A DNA stretch of 64,000 nucleotides from a virus (taxonomy: Duplodnaviria > Caudoviricetes). The stretch lies in the IMG/VR virus record IMGVR_UViG_3300021185_002017; one strand, written 5' to 3'. Under the pieces are notes generated by a model. It worked only from the letters and a program-made list of their open reading frames with translations. It had not been told where the DNA came from and searched no databases. Made by a program: the position numbers and the translations under genes. This document shows, one piece after another, positions 17,059 through 63,398 of the stretch (positions are counted from its first letter, which is position 1; each line of letters opens with the position of its first letter).

Positions 17059-17787
17059 ATGAACATTTCCGATATTACAGAAGCAAAGGTAGCAAGGGCT
17101 AGTGACAAGAAACCGAAGAAGATAAAACCTTCCTCAGGTCACGAAAGCCCTCATCCTATGCAAGGTAAACTTGTCGGAGAAAGCAAACCTCAAAAGCCTA
17201 AGCCTTATGAGCCTAACAAAAATCAACCAAACCCAGTAGCAAAACATTCTCGCAACAAGAGTGGTGCTGGTGCTCACAAGTCACCAAAAGACTACAGTAG
17301 AAAAAACAAAAAGTCAGATATCAGTTCTCAAATGAATGAAGGTCCTTTAGTTTTACAAGGCAAACATGGCGTTAACGGTATGATTGACAAATTTCTAGAT
17401 ACATGGAAAAGTAAAAATCCTACTGAAGAAGAGTACGCAGATTTAATGAAAGTACTAGGTAAACACATAGAGTTTCAAGACGGTAAAAGAGTTGTTCTCA
17501 CAGATTTGGAAGAAGGCAACGGCAATATCCGTAAAGCAATGGGTGCTGCAGCCTTGATTGCTGCCCTTGGGTTAAGTATGCCATCAGCGAAGGATACTCC
17601 GCTAGGCAAAGAACTATCACAAGCGGCGTCTGCAGGCGACGAGGTTGCTGCATACCACCTCAAAAACATGGATTTGTATGTTGAAGCAAATGACCAAAGA
17701 ACATTAGTAAATCTAAAAATTAAATATTTAGAAGATTCTGATAGGGACGATGTTGAAGCATACCTTGCTAAAAAAGCAGGAAAATAA
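17059..17787 (+). CDS. putative internal head protein
   Basis: leader MNISDITE; basic modules separated by VGE, MNE, LEE. Confidence 0.5.
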   Translation: MNISDITEAKVARASDKKPKKIKPSSGHESPHPMQGKLVGESKPQKPKPYEPNKNQPNPVAKHSRNKSGAGAHKSPKDYSRKNKKSDISSQMNEGPLVLQGKHGVNGMIDKFLDTWKSKNPTEEEYADLMKVLGKHIEFQDGKRVVLTDLEEGNGNIRKAMGAAALIAALGLSMPSAKDTPLGKELSQAASAGDEVAAYHLKNMDLYVEANDQRTLVNLKIKYLEDSDRDDVEAYLAKKAGK

Positions 17788-17796
17788 AGGACTATT

Positions 17797-18081
17797 ATGT
17801 TAGACACTATATCAGCGATGCTCAGCGACAGGCTGTGGATCTACACTGCAATTGCAGGCGCACTTTTAGGTGCGGCATTCTTAGCATGGTTCAAAGGAAC
17901 AAGAGCAGGTTTATGGTGTTATAGTAAATTTGACCAGTTCTTAGATTACCTAGTGCAACGCTGGGGATGGACATGGTTAGCAGAAGATGAAAATGCATGG
18001 CGCAAACGCTATCCTAAAGTTACTGCAAAAATTGATGATCTCGAAGCAAGACTTGCTAAACTAGAAAACAAAAAAAAGTAA
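17797..18081 (+). CDS. small membrane protein
   Basis: N-terminal TM helix, C-terminal coiled coil. Confidence 0.65.
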   Translation: MLDTISAMLSDRLWIYTAIAGALLGAAFLAWFKGTRAGLWCYSKFDQFLDYLVQRWGWTWLAEDENAWRKRYPKVTAKIDDLEARLAKLENKKK

Positions 18082-18111
18082 TTATTTAACTCTGTTGTCA
18101 TAAGTAGTTGT

Positions 18112-18762
18112 ATGGCTAGGTATTATGGAAACAGATTGTCAAAAGGTCCTGCTTGGACCGAAGAACCCTTTACTCATATTACGCATGAATTTTGGCCAGA
18201 TAAATCAAGTATGCTTGCCGAGGCAATGTCTGTGAGAGAAGATAACGATCATAGATTTCAACTACCCTTAAAATTTGATAATAGTCGCCCACATCTAACA
18301 CAAGGTGCTACAGGTGTAACTTTAGATTGGTCTAGAATGCAAGAAAAAACACCTTTGCTAAAAGAATATTATGAAAATTTTTTAAACTGGATTGGCAGTG
18401 ACCTAGGAAGGACTACATGCCACTACTTCCACATTGATGCTGGTGCAACATATAGTTGGCATGTAGATAATGTACAAAGTGGTCGTGTAGTAGAAGGAAC
18501 GTCCGATGGTTTTAGAAGACCTTATGATACCTCTCCTGTGAATTGCTGTATTAATTTAGTTATTACAGACGATCAAACAACAGTTGAATTCAACCCTTCG
18601 GAAATAGTTGGATACAAATATGAGTGTGGAATATTAAACACATCAGAATATCATAGAGTATATCCAACCAAGTATAGAGTACTTGCAAGAATATCTTTTT
18701 ATGATTTATTATACGAAGAAGTTGTACACAAAGTCAGAAGACAGGAGAAAAAATTACAATGA
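18112..18762 (+). CDS. cupin/2OG-Fe(II) oxygenase-like protein
   Basis: WHVD..INLVI..LNTSEYHRV (HxD..H triad). Confidence 0.55.
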   Translation: MARYYGNRLSKGPAWTEEPFTHITHEFWPDKSSMLAEAMSVREDNDHRFQLPLKFDNSRPHLTQGATGVTLDWSRMQEKTPLLKEYYENFLNWIGSDLGRTTCHYFHIDAGATYSWHVDNVQSGRVVEGTSDGFRRPYDTSPVNCCINLVITDDQTTVEFNPSEIVGYKYECGILNTSEYHRVYPTKYRVLARISFYDLLYEEVVHKVRRQEKKLQ

Positions 18763-19409
18763 TGCACGGAAACAGAGTTCACAGAGGTCCTGCTTGGGCT
18801 TCAGTGCCATTTACACACATTAATCACGAGTTTTGGCCTAGTAGAGAAAGACTAAAAGAAGAAGCTCTTGCAATGAGAGAAAATGAAGCAAATAGATTTA
18901 GACTTCCTATACCAAAAACTTCTGGTAAGACAGATGTTACTTTAGACTTTCAGTATGTACACGAAAACACTCCAGTACTAGCAGAGTTTTATGATAATTT
19001 CAAGGAATGGTTCGGCGAAACTGGTTGGACACACTGTATGTATTTTTATCTTGACGGTGGTGCTGACTACGAGTGGCACAGAGATAACATACTAAGTGAT
19101 ATCAAATTTAACCCAAAAGAAATATTAGCAAAAGAAGGCAATAGTGCTAATCACGATTTAGTAAAACCTGCAGAAAGTAGTAATTTTCCAGTTAATTGCT
19201 GTATTAACCTAGTAATTACCGAAGATGGTTCAGAATGCGAGTTTATGGATCACGGATTATATAAATATACGGCTGGGATATTAAATACATCTCACTGGCA
19301 TAGGGTAAAACCTAGCACAACACGAATACTTGCAAGAATTTCATTTTTAGAAATGATATACGAGGAAGTTGTTCATAGAATAAGAAAACTAGAGAGGAAT
19401 AAAACATGA
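18759..19409 (+). CDS. cupin/2OG-Fe(II) oxygenase-like protein (paralog)
   Basis: WHRD..INLVI..LNTSHWHRV. Confidence 0.55.
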   Translation: MMHGNRVHRGPAWASVPFTHINHEFWPSRERLKEEALAMRENEANRFRLPIPKTSGKTDVTLDFQYVHENTPVLAEFYDNFKEWFGETGWTHCMYFYLDGGADYEWHRDNILSDIKFNPKEILAKEGNSANHDLVKPAESSNFPVNCCINLVITEDGSECEFMDHGLYKYTAGILNTSHWHRVKPSTTRILARISFLEMIYEEVVHRIRKLERNKT

Positions 19410-19955: not shown

Positions 19956-19982
19956 GTTTGTATTTAGAAGATAAATACTGTT

Positions 19983-22097
19983 ATGAAAATACATAATATC
20001 ACAGAAGGTTATTACGACGACAATCCAAAAGCAGATCCTAAGGTTGTAGATAAATTTGCAGGTGTCGCAGACAGCCAACGTTCATATTACATTATGAAAT
20101 GGGCTGAAGAAAAAGGTATCGATAGCGATGATGCTATGTACATGGCAGGCTATGTACAAGACGGCTACATAGGTGCTGGTGCTTGGAACTGGCGTTATGT
20201 CGGACTAGACGAAGCAAAAGCAAATCCAATGATTATGAATCGCGATGGTAAGGAAATTGAACTTACTAAATCCGGCGATTCAATGAAACCTAAATTTCAC
20301 TTAAAAATTAATGGCGAAGATCATGGCACATTTGATTCTGAGAAAGCTGCAATGCAACATTCAGCAAGACTAAAAGAATCTGCAAATATGCAAGACATGT
20401 TTGATGAACTGAGAATTGACGACAACACACATATAATTGACGGCAACAAAGAACTCACACTTGCTGATGTTGGCATTGGTTATTGGGGGTTAGGTTATGA
20501 CAGAGATGGCCGTTGTTTTGAAATGAGTAAAAGTAGCAGAGAAGATGCTAAAAATAGTATAACTGGTCATGGTGAATATAAAGTTTCTGACGCAGACATT
20601 ACTGATTTTGACGGCGCACGATATTATTGGAATGAGAATAGTCCGGACCATGGTCTACTCCACATAAAACAAATAAAAGAAGAATCAATTAAAGAAGCAG
20701 AAGAAGGAATGATTGGTGAACCAGATAACTGGTATGATGCTGAGCAAAGAAAAGAAGCATACGATCAATTACAAGATGCATTAACGGGCGGATTCGAAGA
20801 CGATTATATCAAAGATGGTACATGTCCAGAATGTGCTGGTTCAGGATACCTAGACGGCGACTATGAAGAGGAAGAAGATAGTTGTGACGGCTGGGGCAAT
20901 TACGGTTGTGACGAAGGCGAAATGCAATATGCTGATGATACTGTGAGCTGGAAAGAAATCAAAGATCACGATGAGAGATCCAAACAAAAAGCAGAACTTG
21001 CTAAGAAGCCACAACCTTCAGATGAAATATTAGCAGGTGCAATGAAACAGTTGCACAAAAATTATGTTGAAACTGGTAGATTTAATGCTATGGAATTACC
21101 AAGCATACTTAGACAAATGTATCCAGAAATCAGCAAACAAAAAGCCAGAGAAATTGGCGGTAAGTTCTTTAAGACTTTCGATACAATGAATGATGAAGAA
21201 CCAGTAACAGAAGCCGGTGCAGAAAAATGCTGGCCTGGACACAAGAAGGTTGGTACACAACCAGGTACAGGCAAAAACAAAGGCAAGCGTGTAAACAAGT
21301 GCAAGAAAATTGAATCTATTGACGAAAGCAGTGACGATGCAATGGTTGCTAAAATGTTAGCAAAAGCATTAGGTGACGAAAACCGTTGGACTGAAATGTC
21401 AGCACCAGAGCTATACGCAGAACTCGAAAGCACTAATCCAGATGTAGCAGACATGATTAGAAATCTTGCAAAGATGCTGTATGATGTCAGACTAGCAGAA
21501 AGAGCATACATAGATGTTGGTGTTGCAGACACAGTAAAAGATCAAAGAGGCAAAGAATTCCAATTTGACAAGAACACTAAAAAGTTTAAGTCACAAGACG
21601 GCGAAGAAGCAGATGTTAAAACTAAGTTAGGCAAAGACTTAATGAGAATTCGTAAGAATCAAATGAAAAAAACTTCGCCTAGTTATAAAACTAAAAAGAA
21701 TCAAGGCAGACCAGTAATGGCTTCTATTGAAGAGTCATATGGTCACACTGATGAAATAACACTAGAAGACAACGAAGACTTCAATGATATATTTGGTGTA
21801 CTAGGCTACAGTTTATGTGAGCAAGATACATTTGAAGCAGAATACCAAGGTCGTAAAGTTAAACTAAACAAACCTATGCAAGGCGATGTTAAGAAGTTTA
21901 AAGTTTATGTTAAAGATCCTAAAACAGGCAATGTTAAAAAAGTTAACTTTGGACACGGCGGAAGTAGTGCTAAAGGTAAAACAATGAAGATTAGAAAAAG
22001 TAATCCTAAAGCAAGAAAAAGTTTTAGAGCAAGACATAACTGTGATAACCCAGGACCTAAGACAAAAGCTCGTTATTGGTCATGTCGTAAATGGTAG
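19983..22097 (+). CDS. modular putative internal head polyprotein
   Basis: leader MKIHNITE; many (I/L/V)xE junctions; CxxCxGxG, KCWPG and KARYWSC modules. Confidence 0.6.
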   Translation: MKIHNITEGYYDDNPKADPKVVDKFAGVADSQRSYYIMKWAEEKGIDSDDAMYMAGYVQDGYIGAGAWNWRYVGLDEAKANPMIMNRDGKEIELTKSGDSMKPKFHLKINGEDHGTFDSEKAAMQHSARLKESANMQDMFDELRIDDNTHIIDGNKELTLADVGIGYWGLGYDRDGRCFEMSKSSREDAKNSITGHGEYKVSDADITDFDGARYYWNENSPDHGLLHIKQIKEESIKEAEEGMIGEPDNWYDAEQRKEAYDQLQDALTGGFEDDYIKDGTCPECAGSGYLDGDYEEEEDSCDGWGNYGCDEGEMQYADDTVSWKEIKDHDERSKQKAELAKKPQPSDEILAGAMKQLHKNYVETGRFNAMELPSILRQMYPEISKQKAREIGGKFFKTFDTMNDEEPVTEAGAEKCWPGHKKVGTQPGTGKNKGKRVNKCKKIESIDESSDDAMVAKMLAKALGDENRWTEMSAPELYAELESTNPDVADMIRNLAKMLYDVRLAERAYIDVGVADTVKDQRGKEFQFDKNTKKFKSQDGEEADVKTKLGKDLMRIRKNQMKKTSPSYKTKKNQGRPVMASIEESYGHTDEITLEDNEDFNDIFGVLGYSLCEQDTFEAEYQGRKVKLNKPMQGDVKKFKVYVKDPKTGNVKKVNFGHGGSSAKGKTMKIRKSNPKARKSFRARHNCDNPGPKTKARYWSCRKW

Positions 22098-22730: not shown

Positions 22731-22751
22731 TATTTCCCCATAAATACATGC

Positions 22752-23953: not shown

Positions 23954-24485
23954 AATTGCTATTACTGGACACACTAATGGAATTGGACAAGCATTATTTG
24001 ACAATCTTAGCAAAAATCACAAATGTCGTGGCTTTAGTAGATCTAACGGTTTTGATATAACTAAAAATAACAACTTATTATTAAATGGAATAGCACGATG
24101 TGATGTTTTTATCAATAATGCATACGCCGAAGATGCTCAAATGAAACTATTAATGCATGTTTTCGACATTTGGCAAAATGACAGCACAAAAACTATAGTA
24201 AACATATCAAGTTCAAGTAAATATCCAGGACATTCGTTCAATCTTTCAGGATATCCAGGATACAAAGCCGCCCTTTCTCATCAAGCAGGCATAATGCAAC
24301 AGATGAACCACAGGCTATGTCGAATTATAAATGTAAATCCGGGATATATTGATACTCCTAGAGTCGGCATGGTAGATAAACCAAAACTAACGACTCAAGA
24401 ATGTGCTGACATCATTATATTTGCAATAGAACAACCACAGCACATAGAAATTGGTGAATTAGGCTTTTGGATTATTGATAAATAG
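23946..24485 (+). CDS. short-chain dehydrogenase/reductase
   Basis: ITGHTNGIG, FINNA, YPGYK, NVNPG. Confidence 0.85.
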   Translation: MSKIAITGHTNGIGQALFDNLSKNHKCRGFSRSNGFDITKNNNLLLNGIARCDVFINNAYAEDAQMKLLMHVFDIWQNDSTKTIVNISSSSKYPGHSFNLSGYPGYKAALSHQAGIMQQMNHRLCRIINVNPGYIDTPRVGMVDKPKLTTQECADIIIFAIEQPQHIEIGELGFWIIDK

Positions 24486-24490
24486 TAGTT

Positions 24491-26830
24491 ATGAAACAGG
24501 TTATCATTTATCCAGGTAGATTCCAGCCAATGCTTTCGCATCATGCAGAAGTATACAGCCAATTACAAACTCAGTTTCCAGAAGCTGATGTATATATTGG
24601 AACCAGTGACAAAGTAGAAAGTGGTAAATCACCTTTTAACTTTAAAGAAAAGCAAATGATAGCCAATGCACACGGCATTGATCCAAGTAAAGTTTTACTA
24701 GCAAAAAGACCTTATCACAAAGATGATTATCCTTTTGATGAGGACAATACTGTTATAATTTTTGCTGTTGGTGAGAAAGACTTAGACAGATTTCCTTTTA
24801 ATAATGTAGATCCTGAGACTGATTTGGATATGACCGTTCGCGGAGAACCAAAGCCAAAGTACTATCAGAAGATAAATACATATAGAACGGATCCAAAGCC
24901 AATGGCTGAAAGAGGATACATAACACTTGCACCAACTATTAAAACAGGTGATGAAATTGCAAGTGCTAGTGCTTTTAGAGATGCATTAAAGAATGCTCCA
25001 GATAAAGAAAGTGCTGAAAAAGTATACACTAAGCAATTTGGAAACTTTGATCCAAAAATATTTGAACTAATATACAATAAAATTACAGGGCAAAATGAAA
25101 TGAAAGAAGAAATTAATAGAATTAGAAAACTTGCAGGTTTAGAGCCTGTTATGGAAAGTTTTGACCCTGCAATGGAACCATCTAGAGAAGATGAAATGTA
25201 TGACGAATTACTTACAGCATATGAACAAGGCGAACAGCAGTTAGCAAAAGCAATGGGCATAAGCGAACAAGAACTTGATCAGGAAATGACTGAGTTTGCA
25301 ATGGACCATGGCTTACATATGGACGACGACAGAGATGAAGTAGTTCACGGTTATATAGAACAAGTAGTTGCTGATGCAGATCACAAAGAATACGAAAGTG
25401 TTGAATTAGAAGCAGAAGCAGTAGCACCAGAAGGCGAACAGCCAGAGCAACCAGAAGAAGGTGAAAAAGTCATTCCTGTTAACAAGCCAATCTCATTAAG
25501 AGGTGATAGCATTTGGGACGAAGATGGTAAAAACCCTGAGTCAGTAAATGTTACAGAAGTTGCTATAGATAAAGACATGGACGAAGATGATTATGCACAT
25601 GTTAGTGTTTCGCATGATGGTCCATGGACAGTATACACCGATTCAGGTTTTGAAGCAGAAATATCTAAAATAGTAGGCTTTGATGTACAGTTTACTGAGC
25701 AAGGCATGCAAGAAGAAGGCCAAGCAAGTCTAGAAGGAAACACTGAAGATTCAGTAGGTATGCAAGAAGAATTAGATAGATTAACTAGTTTATCAGGAAT
25801 AGAAGAAGCACCTATGCCAGACTTTGACAAAGGCGAAAGACCTAAAACAAGTAAAGAACGTGCAGCTTACCGTAAGTGGAAGAAATCTAATGCGGCAGGT
25901 AAAAAAGATGATGATGCACCTTTAACAATCTCTCCAAAAGATCGTAAAGATGCTGAAGCAAGACCTGCAAATGCAGCAGCGGCTGATCCTGCAAAAGCAG
26001 AATTTACAGATATCACTTTAAAAGGAATGAAAGTAGACGGTAAATCTATACCAAGCAGTCAACGAGCTAAAAGTATTGCTAATCAATTCCCAGAAGATGC
26101 TGACTTAAATGATCCAGCAATTAAAAAAGAAGTTTTCTTAAAGTTTACTGCAAAAAGACCAGATTTAATGTTTGGTGAAATTAATGCTCGTATATCTAAT
26201 GACGCAGAAGGTTTAGCAATAAGCGATAGACTTAGTCCAATTGTAAGACAGTTAGAAGATAGCCGTAATATTATGGAACTAGAGCCAGAAGATAAATCAT
26301 TTGCTCTTAAGATTTTAAACAATGCAATACATAATATGGATTTAGTTAAATCTACTGAGATAGATAAGCAAATTGATGTAGAGCCAATGCAATTAGACAC
26401 TGACGACGAAGATGAAAAAGAATACGATGATGATGCAATGGTACCAGTACTAGATATGGAAGACGATGCTGAATTTGAAAAAGAAAGTTTAGATCTATCT
26501 AGCATAAGAGATGAGTTTGGTGTAAATGAAGGCAGATTAAAAGACATTATCCAAGACGCAATGGACATGTCTAAAGAAGAATTTGATGCTGAATACAAAG
26601 GCCAATACGACTACGATCAAATACAAAAAGAATACGGCGACGAAGCAATAGACGAAGGTGGCGAGAAGTGTCCACAATGCGGAATGGTAGATTGCCCATG
26701 TGAGCCAGGTGAATGTGACTGTGATCCAGTTGAAGAACAATCAGAAGTGATTGAAGACATAGTTGACGAAGCAGTTGAAAACACAATTGATGTTGCAATT
26801 AACGAGTTAAAGCAACTAGCAGGCATTTAA
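24491..26830 (+). CDS. nucleotidyltransferase-like domain fused to acidic modular region
   Basis: YPGRFQP..H N-terminus; repeated RLxxLAGL motifs; C-terminal Cys cluster. Confidence 0.65.
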   Translation: MKQVIIYPGRFQPMLSHHAEVYSQLQTQFPEADVYIGTSDKVESGKSPFNFKEKQMIANAHGIDPSKVLLAKRPYHKDDYPFDEDNTVIIFAVGEKDLDRFPFNNVDPETDLDMTVRGEPKPKYYQKINTYRTDPKPMAERGYITLAPTIKTGDEIASASAFRDALKNAPDKESAEKVYTKQFGNFDPKIFELIYNKITGQNEMKEEINRIRKLAGLEPVMESFDPAMEPSREDEMYDELLTAYEQGEQQLAKAMGISEQELDQEMTEFAMDHGLHMDDDRDEVVHGYIEQVVADADHKEYESVELEAEAVAPEGEQPEQPEEGEKVIPVNKPISLRGDSIWDEDGKNPESVNVTEVAIDKDMDEDDYAHVSVSHDGPWTVYTDSGFEAEISKIVGFDVQFTEQGMQEEGQASLEGNTEDSVGMQEELDRLTSLSGIEEAPMPDFDKGERPKTSKERAAYRKWKKSNAAGKKDDDAPLTISPKDRKDAEARPANAAAADPAKAEFTDITLKGMKVDGKSIPSSQRAKSIANQFPEDADLNDPAIKKEVFLKFTAKRPDLMFGEINARISNDAEGLAISDRLSPIVRQLEDSRNIMELEPEDKSFALKILNNAIHNMDLVKSTEIDKQIDVEPMQLDTDDEDEKEYDDDAMVPVLDMEDDAEFEKESLDLSSIRDEFGVNEGRLKDIIQDAMDMSKEEFDAEYKGQYDYDQIQKEYGDEAIDEGGEKCPQCGMVDCPCEPGECDCDPVEEQSEVIEDIVDEAVENTIDVAINELKQLAGI

Positions 26831-26832
26831 CA

Positions 26833-27177
26833 ATGAACGAAATTCAAAGATTACAACAACTAGCAGGTCTTGCAATAACTGAAGCAGAAACAGGTGACGA
26901 AGTTACTAAAACTGTTGCAGGTCATACTGATAACGAAAAAGATATGATTATGAAACAGTTATATCAAACAGGCAAGTACTGTGTAGAGCTTTACAAGATG
27001 ATGGGTAAAATGGATGGTAACACTGATTTCCCACATTGGTGGCAAGGTAAAGTTGTTAAGGCATCAGACTACATTGGTGCAGCTAAACATTACTTAGAAA
27101 ACGAAATCGAAGCACCTAATGTTGAAGTTGTTGTAACACCAGATATCGAAGATAACGACCCTTCAGGCGTTAGTTAA
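26833..27177 (+). CDS. putative internal head protein
   Basis: LQQLAGLAITE leader; PHWWQGK..ASDY..HYLE module. Confidence 0.55.
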   Translation: MNEIQRLQQLAGLAITEAETGDEVTKTVAGHTDNEKDMIMKQLYQTGKYCVELYKMMGKMDGNTDFPHWWQGKVVKASDYIGAAKHYLENEIEAPNVEVVVTPDIEDNDPSGVS

Positions 27178-30100: not shown

Positions 30101-30993
30101 TCAAACAATAGGTCTGTCAAACCCATCATAGATTCACCTGAATCCAATCTTCTTTTGTATTCTTGTAACTCTGGAGTTAATGCATCTCCTGGTCGACCTA
30201 CACCAATATTTCCATTGTCTGTTATGTAGTCATTCCACTCAATGTCACTTCGTACAAGCATATCTATTCTTTCTTCTATTGTTGCCTCTTCCCATACTGG
30301 TATACTTGGATCATCTATCGCTATCTGGTGTGGATTAACCCATGCAAAAGGATCGTGTACTCTAAACTTATCTGAAGGCCTACTCATCATTGTGTTGACC
30401 CATTTTAAACTATTGGATACTTTTATATTTCTGCTTTTAGCAAACTCTAACATATCTACATGGCACTCTTTTGTTTCTGATGCTGGTATAACAACTCTAT
30501 CAGCCATAGTACAATAAGTATCTACTGTGCCTGCAAGAAAATGATCTTTCATTCCTACATTACGATTTCCGTATCTATCAACTAAGTTTGTAAAAGAGTT
30601 TGTATACCAAGTATTTTCTGCAATAGGCGTAACTGGAATATCAGGTACTCTAGTAGTAAGTACATCGAATCTAGTTTCGAAAACAGCATCGTATGGTGTC
30701 TGATGATGATTATGTCTTATATGCGGTGCCGCTAGTGTAGAAAGTAGTGCAGGTCCACTCCAAGAAGTATATAAACTTTCTTGTGGATTTACTGCTAACG
30801 AAAACACAGGTGTTTTGCCAGCATCGTCGAATGAATTAATTATTAGATGTTGTTTTAAATCTGGTGTTTTCCATGTAAACAAATAGTAATCTACATTTTC
30901 TGCAATACTATCAAAGAAATCAAATACAACTGGAGAATTATAACTCCATGTTCGTAAGTGTCCTCGAAGTACAACTGCAATATTCTTCATCAT
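30097..30993 (-). CDS. putative glycosyltransferase-like protein
   Basis: RGHLRTW, YDAVFETRFD, DHF pattern; last gene of sugar operon. Confidence 0.4.
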   Translation of the reverse strand: MMKNIAVVLRGHLRTWSYNSPVVFDFFDSIAENVDYYLFTWKTPDLKQHLIINSFDDAGKTPVFSLAVNPQESLYTSWSGPALLSTLAAPHIRHNHHQTPYDAVFETRFDVLTTRVPDIPVTPIAENTWYTNSFTNLVDRYGNRNVGMKDHFLAGTVDTYCTMADRVVIPASETKECHVDMLEFAKSRNIKVSNSLKWVNTMMSRPSDKFRVHDPFAWVNPHQIAIDDPSIPVWEEATIEERIDMLVRSDIEWNDYITDNGNIGVGRPGDALTPELQEYKRRLDSGESMMGLTDLLFD

Positions 30994-31832
30994 ATAATAT
31001 TTCTCTCTTTACAAAAATCAAACATGTATTGGCCCCATATTTTATGACCTAATGCACTAGGGTGGTACACAATAAAAGAATCTTCCAAGTTGCCTTTTTC
31101 GATCATTACTTTGTGTGCTGTTGAGTCTTTATTAATAAAACTGTTATTGTCAATTAAGTTCCACAGTGTTGACAGCTCGTCTGTCATTACTAAGTTTTTA
31201 TCTCTGTAAACTTCGTCGTTCCACTCTCTAAGCATTTGTTCATGGTGGTGATAAAACGCTTGGTGCATAACATACTTTATGTTAAAACTCTTTAACAGCA
31301 TCTGTGTTAAAAATACTGTGTGTATATATTTAGTAACAAATCCTTTAGCATCTCCGAATAAATCAAAAAATAAATTATAGAATTCGTGTAATTTTTTGCC
31401 TTCTACTTCGCCTAATTGTCCTGTAAAGTCTTGATCTAAACTCCACGGACCATAAGGTGCATAGTTTGTATCTCCAAACTGTTCTTTGTAGTAATGCTCT
31501 GTGCGTTCAGGACTTGTCCAACCAATGCTAACAAATAGTTCTTCAGTGTTCTCTCCAGTAAGGTAACCATTGGTTGCTAAGTACGCAACTAACTTTCTAA
31601 ATATAGCATCGTTGCTTTGCGAAGGCAAACTTAAATCTTCTATGTTGTCAATGTTTGCTAGTTTTGCAAATTGGTTTATATAACGATGCTCAAGCCTGTA
31701 TTTAATGTTTTCAGGAACACTTTGCCTCTCAAATCCACCACCAGGTAAATTCATAATTGGCTCCGGGTCAATTACAGGGTCTACTAGCTCTGCTCCCCAA
31801 CACCAACTGTCTCCACATGCTAACAGTTTCAT
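30990..31832 (-). CDS. SGNH/GDSL-like protein
   Basis: ACGDSWCWG, SND, YHPSALGH. Confidence 0.65.
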   Translation of the reverse strand: MKLLACGDSWCWGAELVDPVIDPEPIMNLPGGGFERQSVPENIKYRLEHRYINQFAKLANIDNIEDLSLPSQSNDAIFRKLVAYLATNGYLTGENTEELFVSIGWTSPERTEHYYKEQFGDTNYAPYGPWSLDQDFTGQLGEVEGKKLHEFYNLFFDLFGDAKGFVTKYIHTVFLTQMLLKSFNIKYVMHQAFYHHHEQMLREWNDEVYRDKNLVMTDELSTLWNLIDNNSFINKDSTAHKVMIEKGNLEDSFIVYHPSALGHKIWGQYMFDFCKERNII

Positions 31833-49086: not shown

Positions 49087-49094
49087 ACTACTAT

Positions 49095-49644
49095 TTATAT
49101 GATTATACTCGCCATTATTAGCAGTAACGATATAGAGCCTAAGAATGCAAAGCCTAATGCTATTGCTGTTATAAGAATTTGAAAGGGTGATGCAGTGTTA
49201 TGTTCTGACTTACCAACGCCTACTAGTAGTCTAAATGTGTTTCTAAAATAGGACACTATTTAATTTAAATACTGCTAACATAGAAAAGAATACTACTATT
49301 TGTATAACTGCTGGTATAACCACAAACAGTTGCATAGCACTAAAATCGCCTTTCATGAAATAGTCTGTTTTAAACCATTCTGCTTGTTCTTCGGGTGTTG
49401 CGTCTCTAACGATCATTTTTTGGTTCCAGGTAGTAAATATTATTGTCTACATCACGCAATCCACGCATTATGCCTGCTATACTATCTGTATTGGCAGCAA
49501 AGAGTAATATCATGTAACACATTGCATGTTTCATTATACTGCTGGAGTTAACGCAAGTATAGAGAATAAGAAAATACTGGACAGTGTAAATATTTCTAAG
49601 TCTTCGACTAACCTAGGGAAGTTGTTGTTGTATCTTTTTTTCAT
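49095..49644 (-). CDS. four coupled small hydrophobic ORFs (49534..49644, 49406..49534, 49243..49416, 49095..49256)
   Basis: hand-translated 36, 42, 57 and 53 aa ORFs with overlapping starts and stops. Confidence 0.45.
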
Positions 49645-50100: not shown

Positions 50101-50871
50101 TCATAACCTGGTAGCCATGACCGGATTCCAGAATCCTAAAGTATCATCTAAAGACTTGCACTTTAGAAGTGCTTTATTATAGTACCTTGCATAACCTGTC
50201 ATTTTGTCATTACAAGTATAAAAACTTTCTAAGTATTTTAGATAATTCAGTGGAGTAGGATGGTAGTCTGCTGTTTGCCCTTTATCGCCCCAACCTGATA
50301 TCTCAAGTGGCTTCCATTCGCCGTTATATATTACTTCGTGAATACTAGGCTTAACTTTTTGTGTTGTAGTATGATAAAAGTCTAAAACATCTGGATTACC
50401 TTCGTTATATTCGGGCGAGTCTCTGCCTCCTGATGTATCTTCGAATTCGATCATTTTAAGCATATCAAAATCACAAGGCAAACTTTTTAGATATGCATGA
50501 GACTGTTCTATAATTGCTAAGTCTCTCATAAGATAAAATCTATTATCTGCCCAATCTTCAACAAACTCTTTTGGTTCAAATACACCTTCGGCATAAATGT
50601 TTCCTGGAGTTGACCAAAGACCGTTTTTATAACGATCTTCTCTGCATATACTAGTCCACATAACCATAATTAAATCGTTTGTGGTAAAGTTGTGCTTAAG
50701 ATTTGCTTCTACTATGCTATTAGATATGAATAGATTGCCGCCACCACTTTGTGCATAATTGTAATATTCTGGAGTTACATGTCCTATAATGTCGGCCCAT
50801 GTAGGCCAATTGTATCTTGTAAAACTGCAACCAAAAGCAAAAAATCTTTTGTATTGATCAAAAGGTCTCAA
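50101..50871 (-). CDS. SGNH-like protein (GCSFT family)
   Basis: AFGCSFT..WPTWAD, GGGN, DYHP. Confidence 0.6.
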   Translation of the reverse strand: MRPFDQYKRFFAFGCSFTRYNWPTWADIIGHVTPEYYNYAQSGGGNLFISNSIVEANLKHNFTTNDLIMVMWTSICREDRYKNGLWSTPGNIYAEGVFEPKEFVEDWADNRFYLMRDLAIIEQSHAYLKSLPCDFDMLKMIEFEDTSGGRDSPEYNEGNPDVLDFYHTTTQKVKPSIHEVIYNGEWKPLEISGWGDKGQTADYHPTPLNYLKYLESFYTCNDKMTGYARYYNKALLKCKSLDDTLGFWNPVMATRL

Positions 50872-58610: not shown

Positions 58611-58928
58611 TTACCAACTAATATTCCACTGTAATGCTGTTGCATCGTTTGGATTTGTAATAATACTAACACCGTATCCTAACTTAGTGAAGTAGTTTTT
58701 TACATAGTTAAGTTGATCTAATTTAGTTGGATCTGTTGTAATGTTGTTCCATACATAGTAGTACACATTACTGTTAGTCATTGTAGAATTGTTTACATTT
58801 GCATATAGTATGCCAGCATCAACATTAGCATATACTGCGTTCTCAATAGCAGTTACTTCGTTGTGAATTACAGTATTGTTTCTAGTACTGCTTCGTGCTG
58901 TTTTAGCATTTATAAATATGCCTGGCAT
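58611..58928 (-). CDS. hypothetical (probably structural) protein
   Basis: N/T-rich 105 aa ORF in late operon. Confidence 0.7.
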   Translation of the reverse strand: MPGIFINAKTARSSTRNNTVIHNEVTAIENAVYANVDAGILYANVNNSTMTNSNVYYYVWNNITTDPTKLDQLNYVKNYFTKLGYGVSIITNPNDATALQWNISW

Positions 58929-58930: not shown

Positions 58931-59269
58931 CTATGCTATCTCCGTGTTCATTGCAGTACTTGCTGCACCTTGAGCTAAGTCAGATACTGTGTCTGCTGCT
59001 TCTTCCCCGTCATCTGTGCTTACTTCGTCGGGTAATTGATTCTTAGTTTTAATGACTTCTCTGTTTACACTACTAGCATGTCCGCTCTTATCAATTGCTG
59101 CAATAAGTTCGTCTGTTGTAGTAACATATCCTTGCTTGGCTAGAAGTGCTCTAAATTGTTCAGTAGGAATATCCGTCTCACCTTTTGCTCCTACTTTTGT
59201 AAGTAGATCTTGAACAGTAAGAATTAAATCGGAAAAATATCCCTCTGATATCACTTCTCTAATTAGCAT
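58931..59269 (-). CDS. putative head protein with processing leader
   Basis: leader MLIREVISE. Confidence 0.55.
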   Translation of the reverse strand: MLIREVISEGYFSDLILTVQDLLTKVGAKGETDIPTEQFRALLAKQGYVTTTDELIAAIDKSGHASSVNREVIKTKNQLPDEVSTDDGEEAADTVSDLAQGAASTAMNTEIA

Positions 59270-59270
59270 G

Positions 59271-60578
59271 TTAAACCTCTACAGGTGTTCTGCCTAATGG
59301 TTCTTCTTCTGGGCCTGCCGCTGCTGGTTCGTTAACATCCATTGCTGGCTCTTCTAATCCTACTTCAGGTTCTGCAGGTGCGCCTAAGTCAGCAGTGTCA
59401 CCTAAACCCATATCGTCAGTGTTTACAATTGTGCCTGCGCCGATTAAACCTGCTATAGCATTATCAATGCCATCTTTAGCAAGTTTTGAATTTTCTAAGT
59501 ATCCGCTTAGTAAACCATTAACACTGTCTGCAAAAGTAGCTGCTGCTTGAGCACCCATTTCGCCACGCATTTGATCTGCAATTGCAGGAAGACTTTCATT
59601 CATCATACGACCAATTTCTTCTACATGTCCTTGTATGTCGTCTGCTAATGCTCTTACTGCCATTACAACTTCTGCTTCTTCGATACTTGTACCTTCAACT
59701 TCTTCGTTTAGCATGTCGTCTATAATACTATCAAACATTGTGCTTTCGTTTTTCTTTTCGTCTTCAGTGTCGCCTGTTACTTCGTACTCTTCGCCGTCTA
59801 CTGTAAATTTCTTTTCGCCTTTAGCAATAGCGTCTTTTCTTGCGCCTGTGAATTTGTTTTGCTCTGCTACTTTAGCACCAAACATTTTAATACCGTTTGC
59901 AACTGCATCTTCATCTAAACCGTTTAAGAAACCAACAACTGCGTCTCTACTTTTTTCTGTTACTTTAGCAAAAGATTCTAACTTCTCTTCAATTGCTTCT
60001 AGGCTTTCTGTACCTGTTAATTCAACACCACACTCTTTAGCAAGTTCTCTAAGCAATGAATCGTTAAGGTCTGTTTCTGGGATATACTCGCCTTCTTCTT
60101 CAATACTTTCGTGATTCATACCACATGATTCCAAGTAGTTTTTTGCTGCTGAAAGGATAATTGGCATAACATGTTCATCATCGTATGCAAAACGAGAGTC
60201 CATTCTGTACTGATTCATGCATTCGCCACAAGCCTCGTCTACAGTGTAGCCGCTGTCCATTAAACTACAAACACTAGCATTAATCATTTCTTTCATCTCA
60301 CCATGTGCTGGTGATTCTGCGTACATGCCTTCGCTAATCATAGTTGTAAGAACATCTTTGATGCCTAAAAACTTTGCGTAATCAGGATCTTGTTGAAACT
60401 TAGTTTTACCGCTTTTGATTAAAGCAATACTTTTGTTAGCAGTTTCTAGTAAACTGTCTAATTTTGCTTTCTTAGGAAATCCGGAGGTCTTCAATGACAC
60501 ACCAAATTCTTCCTTTAGCATTTTGTTAACTTTGGCAATCTTCTTTGCCCCGTTTTGGTTGAATTCTTTTAAAAACAT
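59271..60578 (-). CDS. putative prohead core/scaffold-like protein
   Basis: very acidic, helical, many (I/L)xE sites, Pro/Glu tail. Confidence 0.5.
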   Translation of the reverse strand: MFLKEFNQNGAKKIAKVNKMLKEEFGVSLKTSGFPKKAKLDSLLETANKSIALIKSGKTKFQQDPDYAKFLGIKDVLTTMISEGMYAESPAHGEMKEMINASVCSLMDSGYTVDEACGECMNQYRMDSRFAYDDEHVMPIILSAAKNYLESCGMNHESIEEEGEYIPETDLNDSLLRELAKECGVELTGTESLEAIEEKLESFAKVTEKSRDAVVGFLNGLDEDAVANGIKMFGAKVAEQNKFTGARKDAIAKGEKKFTVDGEEYEVTGDTEDEKKNESTMFDSIIDDMLNEEVEGTSIEEAEVVMAVRALADDIQGHVEEIGRMMNESLPAIADQMRGEMGAQAAATFADSVNGLLSGYLENSKLAKDGIDNAIAGLIGAGTIVNTDDMGLGDTADLGAPAEPEVGLEEPAMDVNEPAAAGPEEEPLGRTPVEV

Positions 60579-60638
60579 TTTTATTAATCCCAGGTATTAA
60601 ATTCTCTATTACTGTTATTTATCATCTTTGTGAACATT

Positions 60639-61028
60639 TTAGTTGAACCGTTTGAGTTCGTCTTTGGTATAATTGAACTTACATATTGTATCAAACAGTC
60701 TTGCTTCAACTACTTGGGATTTTGTAAAGTCTTTTGTGTTTTTTATAGTGTGTCTATAGAACATTATGTCGTTTTTACACCTATAATACTGTCCCATTAG
60801 CCCTTCTAACTTAATTTTAATAGTTATACTAGGTGCTTTTCCTTTATTACGAAGTCTGCATAAGTATGATGCAACACATTTCATTGGAATTTCTGTTGCT
60901 ACTAAAGATTTAGTAATGTGCTCTTGCACAGCAAATGAATCGTTATGTTTGGTTACAACATACACACCTTTTTTAGCAACATTAGTGGCTATAGTGTCTA
61001 ATTGCTTGGTAAGTCTTTGCTTGTTCAT
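60639..61028 (-). CDS. hypothetical protein
   Basis: ATG 5 nt after ATAAATA. Confidence 0.65.
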   Translation of the reverse strand: MNKQRLTKQLDTIATNVAKKGVYVVTKHNDSFAVQEHITKSLVATEIPMKCVASYLCRLRNKGKAPSITIKIKLEGLMGQYYRCKNDIMFYRHTIKNTKDFTKSQVVEARLFDTICKFNYTKDELKRFN

Positions 61029-61051
61029 ATAGGTATTTATGAACTGGTGTT

Positions 61052-61273
61052 CTATAATTTTTGTTTTGCTGAGTATATAATGTAGCACTCACACCCATTT
61101 TTGTTTACTTTATTGAAAATATTTTTTTGATGCATTACATCACAGAGATGTGCATCACGCTCAGACAGTTCATTTAATTTTAAACCGCCAAACAGTTCAG
61201 CCTGATCATATAGTTGTGTTTCAAACTTGTTAATTAGACTTAAGATGTTATCTTTACCTTTTACTGCTTTCAT
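61052..61273 (-). CDS. hypothetical protein
   Basis: coupled to upstream gene. Confidence 0.65.
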   Translation of the reverse strand: MKAVKGKDNILSLINKFETQLYDQAELFGGLKLNELSERDAHLCDVMHQKNIFNKVNKNGCECYIIYSAKQKL

Positions 61274-61947
61274 ATCTTTTGCTGATGCCTTGACTTTTTA
61301 GGCTTACCGTATCCGCCTGTTTGTAAAGTAGCCTCGGCATGCATTGCTGCCATGTGCTTCTTATATTTTTTAGTGCCTTTTTTATGTGGGCTTTTGCCTT
61401 CAGGCATAGTATCTTTGATATCTTTAACCATATCAGGATGTCTAAATTTGCGTAAAATCATTGATTCTATTTGTCGTGTTCTTTCTCTAGTAATACCAAA
61501 CATTTTGCCAACATCTTCTAAACTATGTTGGTCCTCACCGTCAAGTCCATATCGTAAGGCTATAAGTTTTCTTTCTGCAGGTTTTAGTGTATCTAACATT
61601 TTAGAAAGTTTTTCATTTCTCTGCCTGTCCCTTATGTCTTTATCTAAGTCTTGATCGTATGTTAAGTCGTCATCGTCGAATGAATCAAAGTCTTGTGCTT
61701 TGTTTACAGGATCTCTATCATCTAAATGTGGCATAGGTTGTTGCCTGTAAGTTTTGCCATCTGGATTATACAGAGATGCTTGTTGATTTGCATTTGCTTC
61801 GCTTGTTTTTTTCTTCTTTTTCTTTTTAGGAGTTGTATTAGCAAACACACTTGCATTAGGTCTTTTTTGCATAGCACCCATAGGAGCTGCAACGGTAGCA
61901 ATACCACCTGCACTAGTTGTTTCTTGAATAATATCGTTGATCTTCAT
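61270..61947 (-). CDS. modular protein with free-standing sigma70 region 4 HTH
   Basis: LRYGL..SLEDVGKMFGITRERTRQIE..LRKFRHP; leader MKINDIIQE. Confidence 0.85.
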   Translation of the reverse strand: MKINDIIQETTSAGGIATVAAPMGAMQKRPNASVFANTTPKKKKKKKTSEANANQQASLYNPDGKTYRQQPMPHLDDRDPVNKAQDFDSFDDDDLTYDQDLDKDIRDRQRNEKLSKMLDTLKPAERKLIALRYGLDGEDQHSLEDVGKMFGITRERTRQIESMILRKFRHPDMVKDIKDTMPEGKSPHKKGTKKYKKHMAAMHAEATLQTGGYGKPKKSRHQQKI

Positions 61948-61968
61948 AGTAGTATTTACCGTTTTTAA

Positions 61969-62505
61969 TTATGTTAGTCTAACGTTTACAATGTCCCAGT
62001 TAATAATACGCCACATATTGTTTAAGTATTTGCCTTTGTCATGTTGGTAATCTAATGCCCAAGCATGTTCCCACCAGTCAACTAACATTGCAATGTCATT
62101 TTTAACTTGATGATTAACTATTGTTTTGATATCACCGGATGTACTCATGTATACCCAGCCGCTACCTTGTATCTTCATTGCTACTTCTTCGAACTGTTCT
62201 TTGAATGTAGCAAAGTCTCCATACTTACTGTCTATAAGTTCTTTACTTGCACCAGTAGGATTATTACTACCACCTGGTGCTTTCAATTGTGGAAAAAATA
62301 TATTGTGTAAGAATGCACCTGCTTCCATAAACTGTGCATCGCCTTTGCCCTCGTTAAATTTTGTAACGTATGCTTTAGCAAGTTTACCATAGTGAAAGTT
62401 AATTGTGTCCTCACTCATAACAGGATCGAGATCGCTTTTACCGTAAGGTAATCTTTCTTGTACAAGTACTTTCTTTTCTTCTGTTAAAAAATCATTTAAG
62501 TTCAC
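61969..62505 (-). CDS. sod: Fe/Mn superoxide dismutase with N-terminal extension
   Basis: LPY, FHYGK, LHN, GSGW, DWWEHA; four metal ligands present. Confidence 0.92.
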   Translation of the reverse strand: MNLNDFLTEEKKVLVQERLPYGKSDLDPVMSEDTINFHYGKLAKAYVTKFNEGKGDAQFMEAGAFLHNIFFPQLKAPGGSNNPTGASKELIDSKYGDFATFKEQFEEVAMKIQGSGWVYMSTSGDIKTIVNHQVKNDIAMLVDWWEHAWALDYQHDKGKYLNNMWRIINWDIVNVRLT

Positions 62506-63398
62506 TTCTTTTTTCCGCCTTTCATGTTAGCACACCAGTGATACATTTTGCCTTTTTCACCACTATACTTTTTAGCCTTTGCTCTTAAACTTGTTACAGA
62601 ACCTTTACAACTAGCACCTGCTTTTTTGACTCTACCAGGCTTGCTTTTGCCTTTCTTCTTACCGTCTGCAAAGTTTTCGTCGATTGCATTTAATAATGCT
62701 TGAAGGTCTTGCATTGCTTCTATTGTTTCGTATATGCTACCGCCAAACTTAACACTTGAAGTTTTCTTCTTTTTCTTCTTTTTCTTTTTCTTGTACGGTG
62801 CTAGTGTACCTATTCCTAAAAATCCTCTACTAACAGGAGCATCCATAGTAGGAGCATCGCCTGGATCAGCACCACCTACATCACCACCTGCATCACCACC
62901 GGAATCGCCTCCGCCTGTTGCTGCACCACCATCACCACCTGCACTTGCACCACCACTGGCTCCACCTGAGCCTCCTGCTCCGGCTCCACCGCCGGCTCCA
63001 CCACCACCGCCTCCGGCGCCGTCTTCGTATGTTTCTTCGTCTCTGGCTTTACTACTGTAATGCTTTATTAATTCTTCTATAGTAGCATCGACTCTAATTG
63101 CTTTAACTTTATCTAAGTCTAATTCTAATGCTACATCATATCTATGATGTCCGTTGACAATAAAATTATTTTTGTCTATAATTATAGGTCTTATACTACC
63201 ATCATCAAAGCCACGCTTTGCTTTATCTTTTAATCCTTTTACTCGTTGCTTTTGCACAGGCTTTAGATTAGATACTGATATGTTTCCTAACTTATATGAG
63301 AAAGGGCCGTCGTCAAGATCAGGTTGCCTAATCTGAGGCATAATCTTTCGCGGGAAGTTTTTTTCTTGCTCCGGCCTTTGTAACTCAGAAAGTTTCAT
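62502..63398 (-). CDS. ParB/sulfiredoxin-like domain, Gly-rich linker, poly-Lys and basic module
   Basis: PIIIDKNNFIVNGHHR; 40-aa G/A tract; K10. Confidence 0.7.
   Translation of the reverse strand: MKLSELQRPEQEKNFPRKIMPQIRQPDLDDGPFSYKLGNISVSNLKPVQKQRVKGLKDKAKRGFDDGSIRPIIIDKNNFIVNGHHRYDVALELDLDKVKAIRVDATIEELIKHYSSKARDEETYEDGAGGGGGGAGGGAGAGGSGGASGGASAGGDGGAATGGGDSGGDAGGDVGGADPGDAPTMDAPVSRGFLGIGTLAPYKKKKKKKKKKTSSVKFGGSIYETIEAMQDLQALLNAIDENFADGKKKGKSKPGRVKKAGASCKGSVTSLRAKAKKYSGEKGKMYHWCANMKGGKKK

Follow-up and report, generated by a model that had tools for sequence, protein, structure and literature searches.

Leader-bearing genes at the locus

From its sequence, the window analysed here (the whole stretch of 64,000 nucleotides) is assigned to an uncultured marine myovirus of jumbo size, within the PA5oct/Rak2-like branch of the phages related to T4; the Pseudomonas jumbo phage PA5oct is the nearest cultured relative, with a major capsid protein that is 68.6% identical. 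Five window proteins with unrelated downstream sequences (Table 1) start M-[KNL]-[IL]-x-[DEN]-hydrophobic-[ILT]-(x)-E. A first-pass annotation had quoted eight peptides as related leaders. All eight exist, and the five at gene starts 17059, 19983, 59269, 61947 and 62505 are a genuine family, but MFLKE, MKLSE and LAITE are weak members. MLIREVISE is present as described, but the position given as its start, 58931, is the stop end of a minus-strand gene that starts at 59269.

The regular expression M[KNL][IL].[DEN][IVFL][ILT].?E matched 6 of 90 N-termini in the window and 0 of 19,107 internal positions. The sixth match, in the open reading frame (ORF) 15594-15833 (minus strand), has a GTG start and probably does not belong to a gene. 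With a profile trained on leaders from relatives only, five window N-termini reached the cut-off of 6 bits, compared with 0.10 expected (binomial P ~6e-8). The five leaders end in ITE, ITE, ISE, IQE and LTE, which is the (Leu/Ile)-x-Glu motif of gp21 cleavage. This end is absent from the proteins starting MFLKE (60578) and MKLSE (63398), which have only leader positions 1-6 in common with the family. P3 was I/L/V/F in all cases; the invariant Glu is imposed by the search pattern, which also demands the I/L/V/F/M found at positions 3 and 6 in 47 of 47 leaders; orthologues recovered through downstream homology were likewise hydrophobic at both positions.

Table 1. Leader-bearing, half-leader and context genes of the window (leader coordinates in the last column).
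Feature	Coordinates	Strand	Leader or terminus	Leader position or remark
242-aa basic protein, pI 9.3, lysine-rich	17059..17787	+	MNISDITE	17059-17082
704-aa protein	19983..22097	+	MKIHNITE	19983-20006
779-aa protein, without N-terminal leader	24491..26830	+	ends ..ELKQLAGI	
114-aa acidic protein	26833..27177	+	N-terminus MNEIQRLQQLAGLAITE	..QLAG[IL] motif
105-aa context protein, without leader	58611..58928	-		homologue of PA5oct gp245 (structural, mass-spectrometry-detected)
112-aa acidic protein	58931..59269	-	MLIREVISE	59243-59269
435-aa acidic protein	59271..60578	-	starts MFLKEF	putative targeting half of leader only
225-aa basic protein with sigma-70 region 4	61270..61947	-	MKINDIIQE	61921-61947
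Fe/Mn superoxide dismutase (SOD)	61969..62505	-	(V/M)NLNDFLTE, 9-aa add-on	62479-62505
298-aa basic ParB-N-like protein	62502..63398	-	starts MKLSEL	half-leader only; PHROG ParB-like matches
C-terminal end of 1958-aa protein	63398..64000	-	starts MKAKDIRTLKSLISE	N-terminus beyond window, in 99.9%-identical contig (L041/L047)

The 242-aa protein has no match in Pfam or PHROG, and its orthologues carry the variant leaders MNIFDITE, MKIQDFLTE, MKLSNFLNE and MQISEFFE ahead of a conserved KKPKKIKP domain. A late-promoter-like GATAAATA (19970-19977) lies immediately 5' of the 704-aa gene. Orthologues of the RSYYIMKWAE domain at the N terminus of its product start MKLYKFLTE, MKFFELITE, MNIYDIIKE or MRVQDIIIAE, and the ITE/GYY junction of the window protein matches PA5oct gp333 (MKINDIITE/GYY; a slash marks the end of a leader or propeptide). 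The 112-aa protein, with orthologues starting MLINEVISE and MLIREVITE, occupies the position of PA5oct gp246 (VKIKDILVE), flanked by homologues of gp247 and gp245. In the 225-aa protein the leader, which is retained in orthologues, is followed by a TTSAGGIATVA..PMG module, a poly-lysine run and a sigma-70 region 4 helix-turn-helix (Pfam PF04545, E 3e-13, residues 118-170); a likeness to the mature N-arm of the major capsid protein extends over residues 10-37, and GTAAATA, a variant of the late box, is found 6 nt upstream of the ATG. The SOD gene is initiated at a GTG overlapping the stop codon of the gene before it; in orthologues the start at this position is ATG and the leader MKVNDFLTE. Its product matches PF02777 (Sod_Fe_C, 3.9e-22) and PF00081 (Sod_Fe_N, 5.6e-9), alignment with solved FeSODs matches all four metal ligands (His, His, Asp, His), and the alpha-hairpin domain is shortened. 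Homology with cellular FeSODs pairs residue 17 onward with enzyme residue 5 onward.

The gene cluster reported at 58931-63398 is real, and a 99.9%-identical contig carries it on for approximately 14 kb beyond the window. Further leader candidates just outside the window are proteins of 185 and 98 aa; a DUF6267 protein and two giants (954 and 1958 aa) probably belong with them. The 1958-aa protein has a weak amidoligase domain, and the 87-aa ORF at 63398-63661 is not a gene but its C-terminal end. The 435-aa protein and its orthologues (MFLKD, MFIRD, MFLNE) lack the hydrophobic-x-E end; it matches phrog_14154 ('virion structural protein') and is a homologue of PA5oct gp247, a virion protein detected by mass spectrometry, and ATAAATA precedes its gene at 60616-60622 (minus strand). 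The ParB-like protein, which has a Gly/Ala-rich linker and a K10 run, has orthologues that start MKLFEL or MRLAEF and also lack this end. We rejected '..LAITE' (26833) as a leader: it belongs to an L-Q-Q-L-A-G-L motif that orthologues keep as LQELAGI or LQQLAGI without ITE. A motif of the ..KLAG[IL] type also terminates the scaffold protein, whose tail is the same as the ..ELKQLAGI tail of the 779-aa protein; the latter has an internal copy at residue 211. A distant homologue of the 779-aa protein (contig L011, 1680-2939) carries the leader MLLRELFE, with a cytidylyltransferase-like domain from residue 17.

The leader is portable and, over 146 kb, spares replication genes

Across IMG/VR marine viral contigs we found approximately 47 distinct leader-bearing N-termini; the families concerned number more than 15 and are unrelated. 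Known domains carry the leader as an N-terminal addition and begin at residue 17 in SOD, residue 27 in DUF6267 proteins and residue 17 in CTP_transf_like proteins; the window homologue of the last family is without it. Orthologous leaders differ conservatively (I/L/V/F, D/E, K/R), every synonymous codon occurs at the conserved positions (ATA/ATT/ATC, GAA/GAG, GAT/GAC), and tagged genes differ in initiation context: some have a late box directly against the ATG, others a Shine-Dalgarno sequence or a GTG-coupled start. Together, these patterns argue that selection is on the peptide, not on the RNA.

The leaders had been called genome-wide. We found at least nine in the approximately 146 kb scanned, which is less than half of a genome of approximately 350 kb. 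They occurred only on head-module proteins, proteins of unknown function, the SOD and the sigma-70 region 4 protein. Within the 146 kb no DNA-replication or nucleotide-metabolism gene was tagged, and the leader was absent from the primase, helicase, UvsX, UvsW, RNR, ThyX, terminase, sheath and neck genes, as well as from every tail, baseplate and membrane protein. Boxes resembling late promoters stand ahead of 19983, 60578 and 61947 and on either side of the plus-strand block at 15.9-27.2 kb. The AT-rich window shows no excess of ATAAATA (25 found versus 29 expected), so the late-promoter argument is one of position only.

Resemblance to T4 targeting sequences and propeptides

A profile built from marine leaders only placed gp24 (MAKINELLRE) at the top of the 219 T4 ORFs, its 16.2 bits comparing with 5.2 for the next. 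The capsid targeting sequence of T4 is known from IPIII, IPII and IPI (Mullaney & Black 1996; reviewed in PMC9026906 and PMC3012670), and other T-even Ips have been described (PMC12373910). In the T4 record, IPII and IPIII start MKTYQEFIAE, Alt MELITELFDE and gp22 MLKEQLIAE. Mapping of IPIII assigned residues 4 and 7 to targeting and residues 8 and 10 to processing (PMC9026906); their marine equivalents are the conserved positions 3, 6, 7 and 9. Among T4 proteins, the marine leader comes nearest to the known gp21-cleaved N-termini, those of gp24, Alt and the IPs.

As in T4 internal proteins, the marine leader is a short peptide at the extreme N terminus (approximately 10-20 aa in the T4 type) of otherwise unrelated proteins, reads hydrophobic-x-acidic-hydrophobic-hydrophobic-x-Glu with a small residue after the Glu, and belongs to clustered, variable genes, several of whose products are small and basic. 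It differs in length (8-9 aa versus 10 in T4) and in its phage, which is a PA5oct/Rak2-like marine jumbo phage and not a Tequatrovirus. Whereas T4 Ips are small type IV restriction inhibitors, the putative marine cargo includes enzymes and regulators (SOD, sigma-70 region 4, cytidylyltransferase-like, ParB-like and DUF6267 proteins) plus giants. The closest match is the gp24 propeptide (MAKINELLRE/S), which gp21 removes and which shares KIN-E/D-LL/II-x-E followed by a Thr/Ser-rich stretch; unlike it, the marine leader is on non-capsid proteins. No gp24 paralogue was found in this lineage, and PA5oct has a single Gp23-like locus. The Alt propeptide (MELITELFDE/D), also removed by gp21, offers an established example of a head-borne enzyme with such a sequence in front.

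In phiKZ-like giants (phiKZ, 201phi2-1 and SPN3US), propeptides are cut by prohead proteases at S/A/G-x-E (PMC5694885). There, too, a protease related to T4 gp21 cuts after Glu in many head and ejection proteins, and large numbers of proteins are packaged, but those propeptides are mostly long (often more than 100 aa) with a small P3, whereas the marine leaders are short with a hydrophobic, T4-like P3.

Head module and PA5oct counterparts

Contig walking led to the head module on a contig that is 96.3% identical in its overlap with the window's contig, and not on the window's own contig. The prohead protease that the first-pass annotation proposed to find is present there as a gp21-family Peptidase_S77 (PF03420; contig L056, 5321-5947), 65% identical to the PA5oct protease. 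On this relative, MKINEFYE opens a 66-aa small core protein encoded between portal and protease, MAVTFKDLIE opens the scaffold protein, with the leader shifted by one residue, and YLSE/AATTG of the major capsid protein aligns with the T4 gp23 cut site, FLTE/AEIGG, at residue 65. Capsid and core proteins of this relative bear the leader-type cut motif, and we infer cleavage there.

PA5oct has the same leader, the same gene order of portal, small protein, acidic protein, protease, scaffold and capsid protein, and the same gp247-246-245-exonuclease block; it differs in that approximately 3-4 leader proteins were seen, compared with at least nine in 146 kb of the marine phage. The leaders and their processing are not discussed in the PA5oct paper (PMC7318152). 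Both gp333 (73 aa) and gp246 (104 aa) are annotated 'structural protein, ESI-MS/MS'. Also detected were gp247, gp245 and gp254, each with a homologue or positional counterpart in the window block, and the SOD gp223, whose extension ends ISIAE/A; gp213 has a leader-like start, yet is not among the detected virion proteins. The 242-aa, 704-aa and sigma-70 region 4 proteins have no PA5oct homologue. Because the mass-spectrometry list also includes RNR, thymidylate synthase and FtsH (7 'virion-unrelated enzymes' among 93 hits according to its authors; PMC7318152), detection in PA5oct is weak proof of packaging.

A putative packaging tag and its alternatives

An 8-9-residue N-terminal peptide that closely resembles the T4 tag, which directs proteins into the head and is afterwards removed, is thus carried by many unrelated proteins of this marine jumbo phage; these proteins are probably packaged in the capsid. 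We favour, with a probability of roughly 0.7, the reading that the leader is a local version of the T4 capsid targeting sequence combined with a prohead-protease propeptide, and that its cargo is kept in the head and probably injected; targeting, cleavage, head retention and injection are all steps that we infer. The leader would form a short amphipathic helix, hydrophobic at positions 3, 6 and 7 and acidic at 5, that may draw late-made proteins into the prohead scaffolding core. The Peptidase_S77 protease would then remove it after the Glu of hydrophobic-x-E, and the mature cargo would remain in the DNA-filled head and probably enter the host with the DNA. Candidate cargo in the window comprises the basic, poly-lysine, 'internal-protein-like' 242-aa and sigma-70 region 4 proteins, the SOD and the 704-aa and 112-aa proteins. 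The earlier proposal of one export tag loading diverse enzymes and modules would fit the portability, the selection on the peptide, the T4 likeness, the protease, the leaders on head-core proteins, the untagged replication, nucleotide-metabolism and tail genes of the 146 kb and the detection in PA5oct. It is supported in part: three of its eight examples fall outside the family as described, and its genome-wide scope was followed over less than half of the genome.

Leader-bearing proteins might instead enter the prohead and lose the leader there, yet serve as parts of the core or scaffold, or be degraded and expelled during maturation, with no payload kept in the head and injected. The leader on the core protein at the gp67 position and, one residue shifted, on the scaffold protein would suit this, as would the extensive degradation of T4 core proteins (PMC9026906). 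We consider it unlikely, given that SOD, cytidylyltransferase-like, sigma-70 region 4 helix-turn-helix and ParB-like proteins have no plausible scaffolding role, that the basic character and poly-lysine runs of several cargo proteins recall the DNA-associated internal proteins of T4, and that PA5oct counterparts were detected in mature virions. Somewhat less likely still is a signal for another process, such as a ClpX degron or adaptor site, a membrane-binding amphipathic helix or a tail or baseplate assembly tag. The phage does encode ClpX (3888-5162; 41% identical to the ClpX-like gene of PA5oct, which also annotates ClpS- and ClpP-like genes), and short amphipathic N-terminal helices have many uses; yet the best-matching known N terminus belongs to a gp21 substrate, the hydrophobic-x-E end is the motif that aligns with the capsid-protein maturation site, and tagged proteins lie within the head-morphogenesis module, with none among the tail, baseplate or membrane proteins of the 146 kb.

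Least probable is that the resemblance reflects chance or a constraint on translation initiation, whereby nearly leaderless late mRNAs would need a 5' coding region that is AT-rich and free of structure. MK.. starts are common in AT-rich genomes, and many late genes lack a Shine-Dalgarno sequence and have their promoter box 5-6 nt upstream of the ATG. Against this stand the synonymous codon use and conservative replacements, the tagged genes with Shine-Dalgarno or GTG-coupled starts, the lack of the leader in most other late-box genes and the confinement of matches to N-termini (6/90 versus 0/19,107). T4, at 35% GC, yields gp24 as its sole strong match to the marine profile.

Leader peptides at gene starts

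The first-pass annotation had grouped eight N-termini as carriers of one leader likened to the T4 capsid targeting sequence (CTS). All quoted peptides are present in the window; the plus-strand coordinates hold. On the minus strand, gene starts had been confused with gene ends: MLIREVISE begins at 59269 rather than 58931. The family is tight at five N-termini (Table) and does not include MFLKE, MKLSE or ..LAITE. The proposed pattern matched 6 of the 90 N-termini in the window and had no match at 19,107 internal positions, and a profile from relatives' leaders only placed five of these N-termini at or above 6 bits, versus 0.10 expected (P ~6e-8). The sixth pattern match, a 79-aa GTG ORF, is probably not a gene and was set aside. 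The primase N-terminus MPMSVDSVIE was also rejected, as its match does not coincide with the annotated start and has no acidic residue at position 5. The superoxide dismutase (SOD) gene starts with a GTG that overlaps the upstream stop; its orthologues have ATG at the same place.

The first-pass parse of MFLKE and MKLSE as leaders of five residues with a cut site at the end was rejected, as orthologues carry Asp or other residues there. Their targeting half (M-x-hydrophobic-x-acidic-hydrophobic) is conserved but the hydrophobic-x-Glu end is absent from orthologues, and these proteins may be targeted yet uncut. At 26833, ..LAITE shows no conservation; the N-terminus there instead has L-Q-Q-L-A-G-L. 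The reported cluster at 58.9–63.4 kb is real and extends ~14 kb past the window end; in that stretch, proteins of 1958 and 954 aa and a DUF6267 protein have longer leader-like N-termini. The 1958-aa protein has a weak amidoligase domain (PF12224), and its stop overlaps the start of the ParB-like gene; an 87-aa ORF at the window end (63398–64000 region) is its C-terminal end and not a separate gene. ParB-like family members share a C-terminal tail (..YHWCANMK.G.KKK); those outside the window have full leaders (MKMRDLLE, MRIRDLLE, MRIREITE), the window copy only the first half. Overall, the initial observation was largely confirmed and its interpretation partly supported.

Features discussed, with window positions unless a related metagenome contig (L0xx) is named
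Feature	Position	Strand	Detail
242-aa leader protein	17059 (start)	+	MNISDITE; family MKIQDFLTE, MQISEFFE
704-aa leader protein	19983 (start)	+	MKIHNITE; family MKLYKFLTE, MRVQDIIIAE
112-aa leader protein	59269 (start)	-	MLIREVISE
Sigma-r4 protein	61947 (start)	-	MKINDIIQE; family MLIRDIINE, MRINEIINE, MKISELLNE
SOD	62505 (start)	-	MNLNDFLTE; family MKVNDFLTE
MFLKE N-terminus	60578		targeting half
MKLSE N-terminus	63398		targeting half
GTG ORF, 79 aa	15594-15833		set aside
ParB-like family	62502-63398	-	
ParB-like family	L011 3145-3882; L019 190-1758; L031 2246-3301		
1958-aa protein	L047 13533-19409		
N-arm likeness	61837-61920		sigma-r4 residues 10-37
LAG[IL] motif	24491-26830		779-aa protein; C-terminus, residue 211
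LAG[IL] motif	26833-26883; L056 5967-7076; L047 5847-8711		
Late boxes	19970-19982, 22739-22751, 24477-24490	+	examples
Late boxes	34015-34027, 39058-39070, 49087-49099	-	examples
GDSL/SGNH-like paralogues	1902-2675, 30990-31832, 35596-36465, 37647-38528, 50101-50871	-	
ClpX homologue	3888-5162	-	
Tandem pair	15897-16502 / 16513-17052	+	
Tandem pair	18112-18762 / 18759-19409	+	

A probably functional peptide confined to particular genes

Orthologues on IMG/VR contigs keep the leader with conservative substitutions, and ~47 distinct leader-bearing starts occur on more than 15 unrelated families. An origin at the RNA level is unlikely, because all synonymous codons are in use at the conserved positions and the tagged genes have several kinds of initiation context. 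The leader is an add-on to otherwise recognizable proteins: homology starts at residue 17 in SOD (versus residue 5 of cellular FeSOD), at residue 27 in the DUF6267 protein and at residue 17 in the cytidylyltransferase-like domain, a family whose window homologue (the 779-aa protein) has no leader. The refuting condition named in the first pass, a motif just as common at the N-termini of metabolic or early genes, did not hold. Over 146 kb, the leader was absent from replication, nucleotide-metabolism, terminase, neck, sheath and fibre genes. The true gene starts that bear it were those of SOD, the sigma-r4 protein (which carries sigma-70 region 4), a 66-aa core protein, the scaffold (where it is shifted by one residue), the 242-aa, 704-aa and 112-aa proteins, and two further proteins of 185 aa (MRIDEIIAE) and 98 aa (MRLDEIVE).

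This 146-kb composite was built by walking along a 141-kb metagenome contig that is 99.9% identical to the window, and near-identical ones; the head module was reached through nine successive exact-protein look-ups. The composite encodes a T4-like neck, sheath, terminase, UvsX, UvsW, primase-helicase and curli genes, with the head module at its end. The window has 37% GC and 12 tRNA genes. Megablast of 19 kb of it found nothing among 50,697 phage records, there was no near match among cultured phages, and an exact 43-mer had none in IMG/VR. As related IMG/VR fragments of ~100 kb are rated 28% complete, the genome measures ~350 kb. The major capsid protein shares 68.6% identity with its counterpart in the Pseudomonas jumbo phage PA5oct and ~62% with those of Rak2-like phages.

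Likeness to T4 and a candidate protease

The T4 likeness held up. N-termini in the T4 record include those of IPII and IPIII (MKTYQEFIAE), IPI (MKTFKEF...STITE), gp24 (MAKINELLRE), Alt (MELITELFDE), gp22 (MLKEQLIAE) and gp21 (MNEPQLLIE). A marine-only profile run against 219 T4 ORFs ranked gp24 top at 16.2 bits, the next best scoring 5.2. IPIII depends on residues 4 and 7 for targeting and on residues 8 and 10 for processing (PMC9026906); with a shift of one residue, they correspond to positions 3, 6, 7 and 9, which are conserved in the marine leaders. The 10–20-residue propeptides of gp24 and the internal proteins have been grouped together as capsid targeting sequences (PMC5694885).

A prohead protease, which the first pass had proposed to look for, is encoded in contig L056 (5321-5947), 96.3% identical to a window-matching contig over a 5.7-kb overlap. 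Its head module encodes, in order, the portal, the 66-aa protein (phrog_13986; MKINEFYE), an acidic 253-aa protein, the protease (Peptidase_S77), a 369-aa scaffold (MAVTFKDLIE) and the Gp23-family major capsid protein. No Peptidase_S77 was found in five other IMG/VR fragments related to the window, which are only 9–28% complete. In the capsid protein, YLSE/AATTG (slash, known or predicted cut site) lines up with FLTE-65/AEIGG, the site at which T4 gp23 is matured, and the same column holds LVE/N in PA5oct and LRE/S in GAP32; T4 hydrophobic-x-Glu specificity has therefore very probably been retained in the lineage. A complex prediction of protease, scaffold and sigma-r4 residues 1–45, run without controls, scored 0.00 with a partner pLDDT of ~30 and speaks neither for nor against binding.

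Leader-bearing proteins in the PA5oct virion proteome

The head-module genes of PA5oct follow the same order. The 73-aa gp333 of this phage, annotated as 'structural protein, ESI-MS/MS', starts MKINDIITEGYY (compare MKIHNITEGYY in the window). The window block of 435-aa, 112-aa, 105-aa, exonuclease and 841-aa genes corresponds to PA5oct gp247-246-245-244-243; gp246 starts VKIKDILVE and was detected by mass spectrometry, as were gp247, gp245 and gp243. The PA5oct SOD, gp223, has an extension ending ISIAE/A and was detected too. Detection as evidence of packaging is tempered by RNR, ThyA and FtsH on the same proteome list, whose authors classed 7 of its 93 hits as enzymes unrelated to the virion (PMC7318152). 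No PA5oct homologue of the sigma-r4 protein was found. The same leader on PA5oct virion proteins means that a cultured relative is available for a direct test of the idea.

We put the probability that the leader is a capsid-targeting propeptide at roughly 70%. CTS-marked internal proteins have long been known in T-even phages (PMC9026906, PMC12373910), and phiKZ-like giants are known to have long propeptides cut at A/S/G-x-E (PMC5694885). Our incomplete coverage of the literature revealed no report of such leaders in PA5oct/Rak2-like or marine phages. Relative to known CTS systems, the mechanism would be the same, in a new lineage and with a far larger set of tagged proteins, some of them enzymes. 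Should this reading be right, the proteins that an uncultured ocean phage carries in its capsid could be predicted from a nine-residue peptide in the sequence alone, which would make the 'injected proteome' of such marine jumbo phages accessible to metagenome mining. It would also add a second phage lineage to T4 as a source of short, portable packaging tags. The cargo so predicted is unusual: an antioxidant enzyme, nucleic-acid enzymes and a host-type sigma factor fragment, which could act on RNA polymerase at entry.

Second motifs and possible cargo

The earlier proposal invoked a single export tag; additional tags may exist. Scaffold proteins of the marine phage and PA5oct end in ..[KRQE][KRQE]LAG[IL] (..KLSGM in GAP32), as do the 779-aa protein, the 954-aa block protein and a ~700-aa family of other contigs, three large, unrelated proteins. 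Only 11 of 3,386 non-redundant ORFs have this C-terminus. The tail may mimic that of the scaffold as a second route into the prohead, and one enzyme family carrying either the leader or the tail suggests two routes to the same place.

Directly behind the leader, a stretch of the sigma-r4 protein is similar to the mature N-arm of the major capsid protein (alignment score 42–47, against 20 ± 4 on average for shuffled sequences, none of 500 of which scored as high), a likeness that is weaker in other family members. This module, TTSAGG[IV]A[TS]VA.P[ML]G, recurs in many small basic marine-contig proteins (homologues in L003, L005, L020 and L036), fused to varied C-terminal domains, including an RSYYIMKWAE domain in L088; a short protein of this family had no match among cultured phage records. 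Poly-lysine runs in the sigma-r4 (pI 9.6), 242-aa (pI 9.3) and ParB-like (pI 9.7) proteins recall the DNA-associated internal proteins of T4. SOD keeps its metal ligands and has a shortened hairpin domain.

A broader and rather doubtful reading is that marine jumbo phages use a modular three-part address code, drawn from their own head proteins, to load the capsid with a large and rapidly evolving enzymatic toolkit for injection. Its parts would be the cleavable CTS-like leader, a copy of the capsid N-arm (TTSAGG..PMG) and the scaffold-like ..KLAG[IL] tail. The toolkit would comprise SOD, sigma-70 region-4, ParB-like, cytidylyltransferase-like and ligase-like proteins and the 1958-aa amidoligase-bearing giant, and on injection would reprogramme or protect the host cell at entry.

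Other features of the window

In many window genes, a T4-type late box (ATAAATA) precedes the ATG by just 5–6 nt and there is no Shine-Dalgarno sequence, so that many late mRNAs would be nearly devoid of a 5' leader. GDSL/SGNH-like N-termini (..GCSF(T/S).. or ..CGDSW..) are shared by at least five paralogues, several of them interleaved with tRNA genes and lying behind late boxes; a sixth lies 3' of the capsid gene in L056. The ClpX homologue, with a zinc-finger start at its N-terminus, is 41% identical to a PA5oct gene, near which ClpS- and ClpP-like genes are annotated. Two tandem paralogue pairs lie in the late plus-strand block alongside the 242-aa and 704-aa leader proteins.
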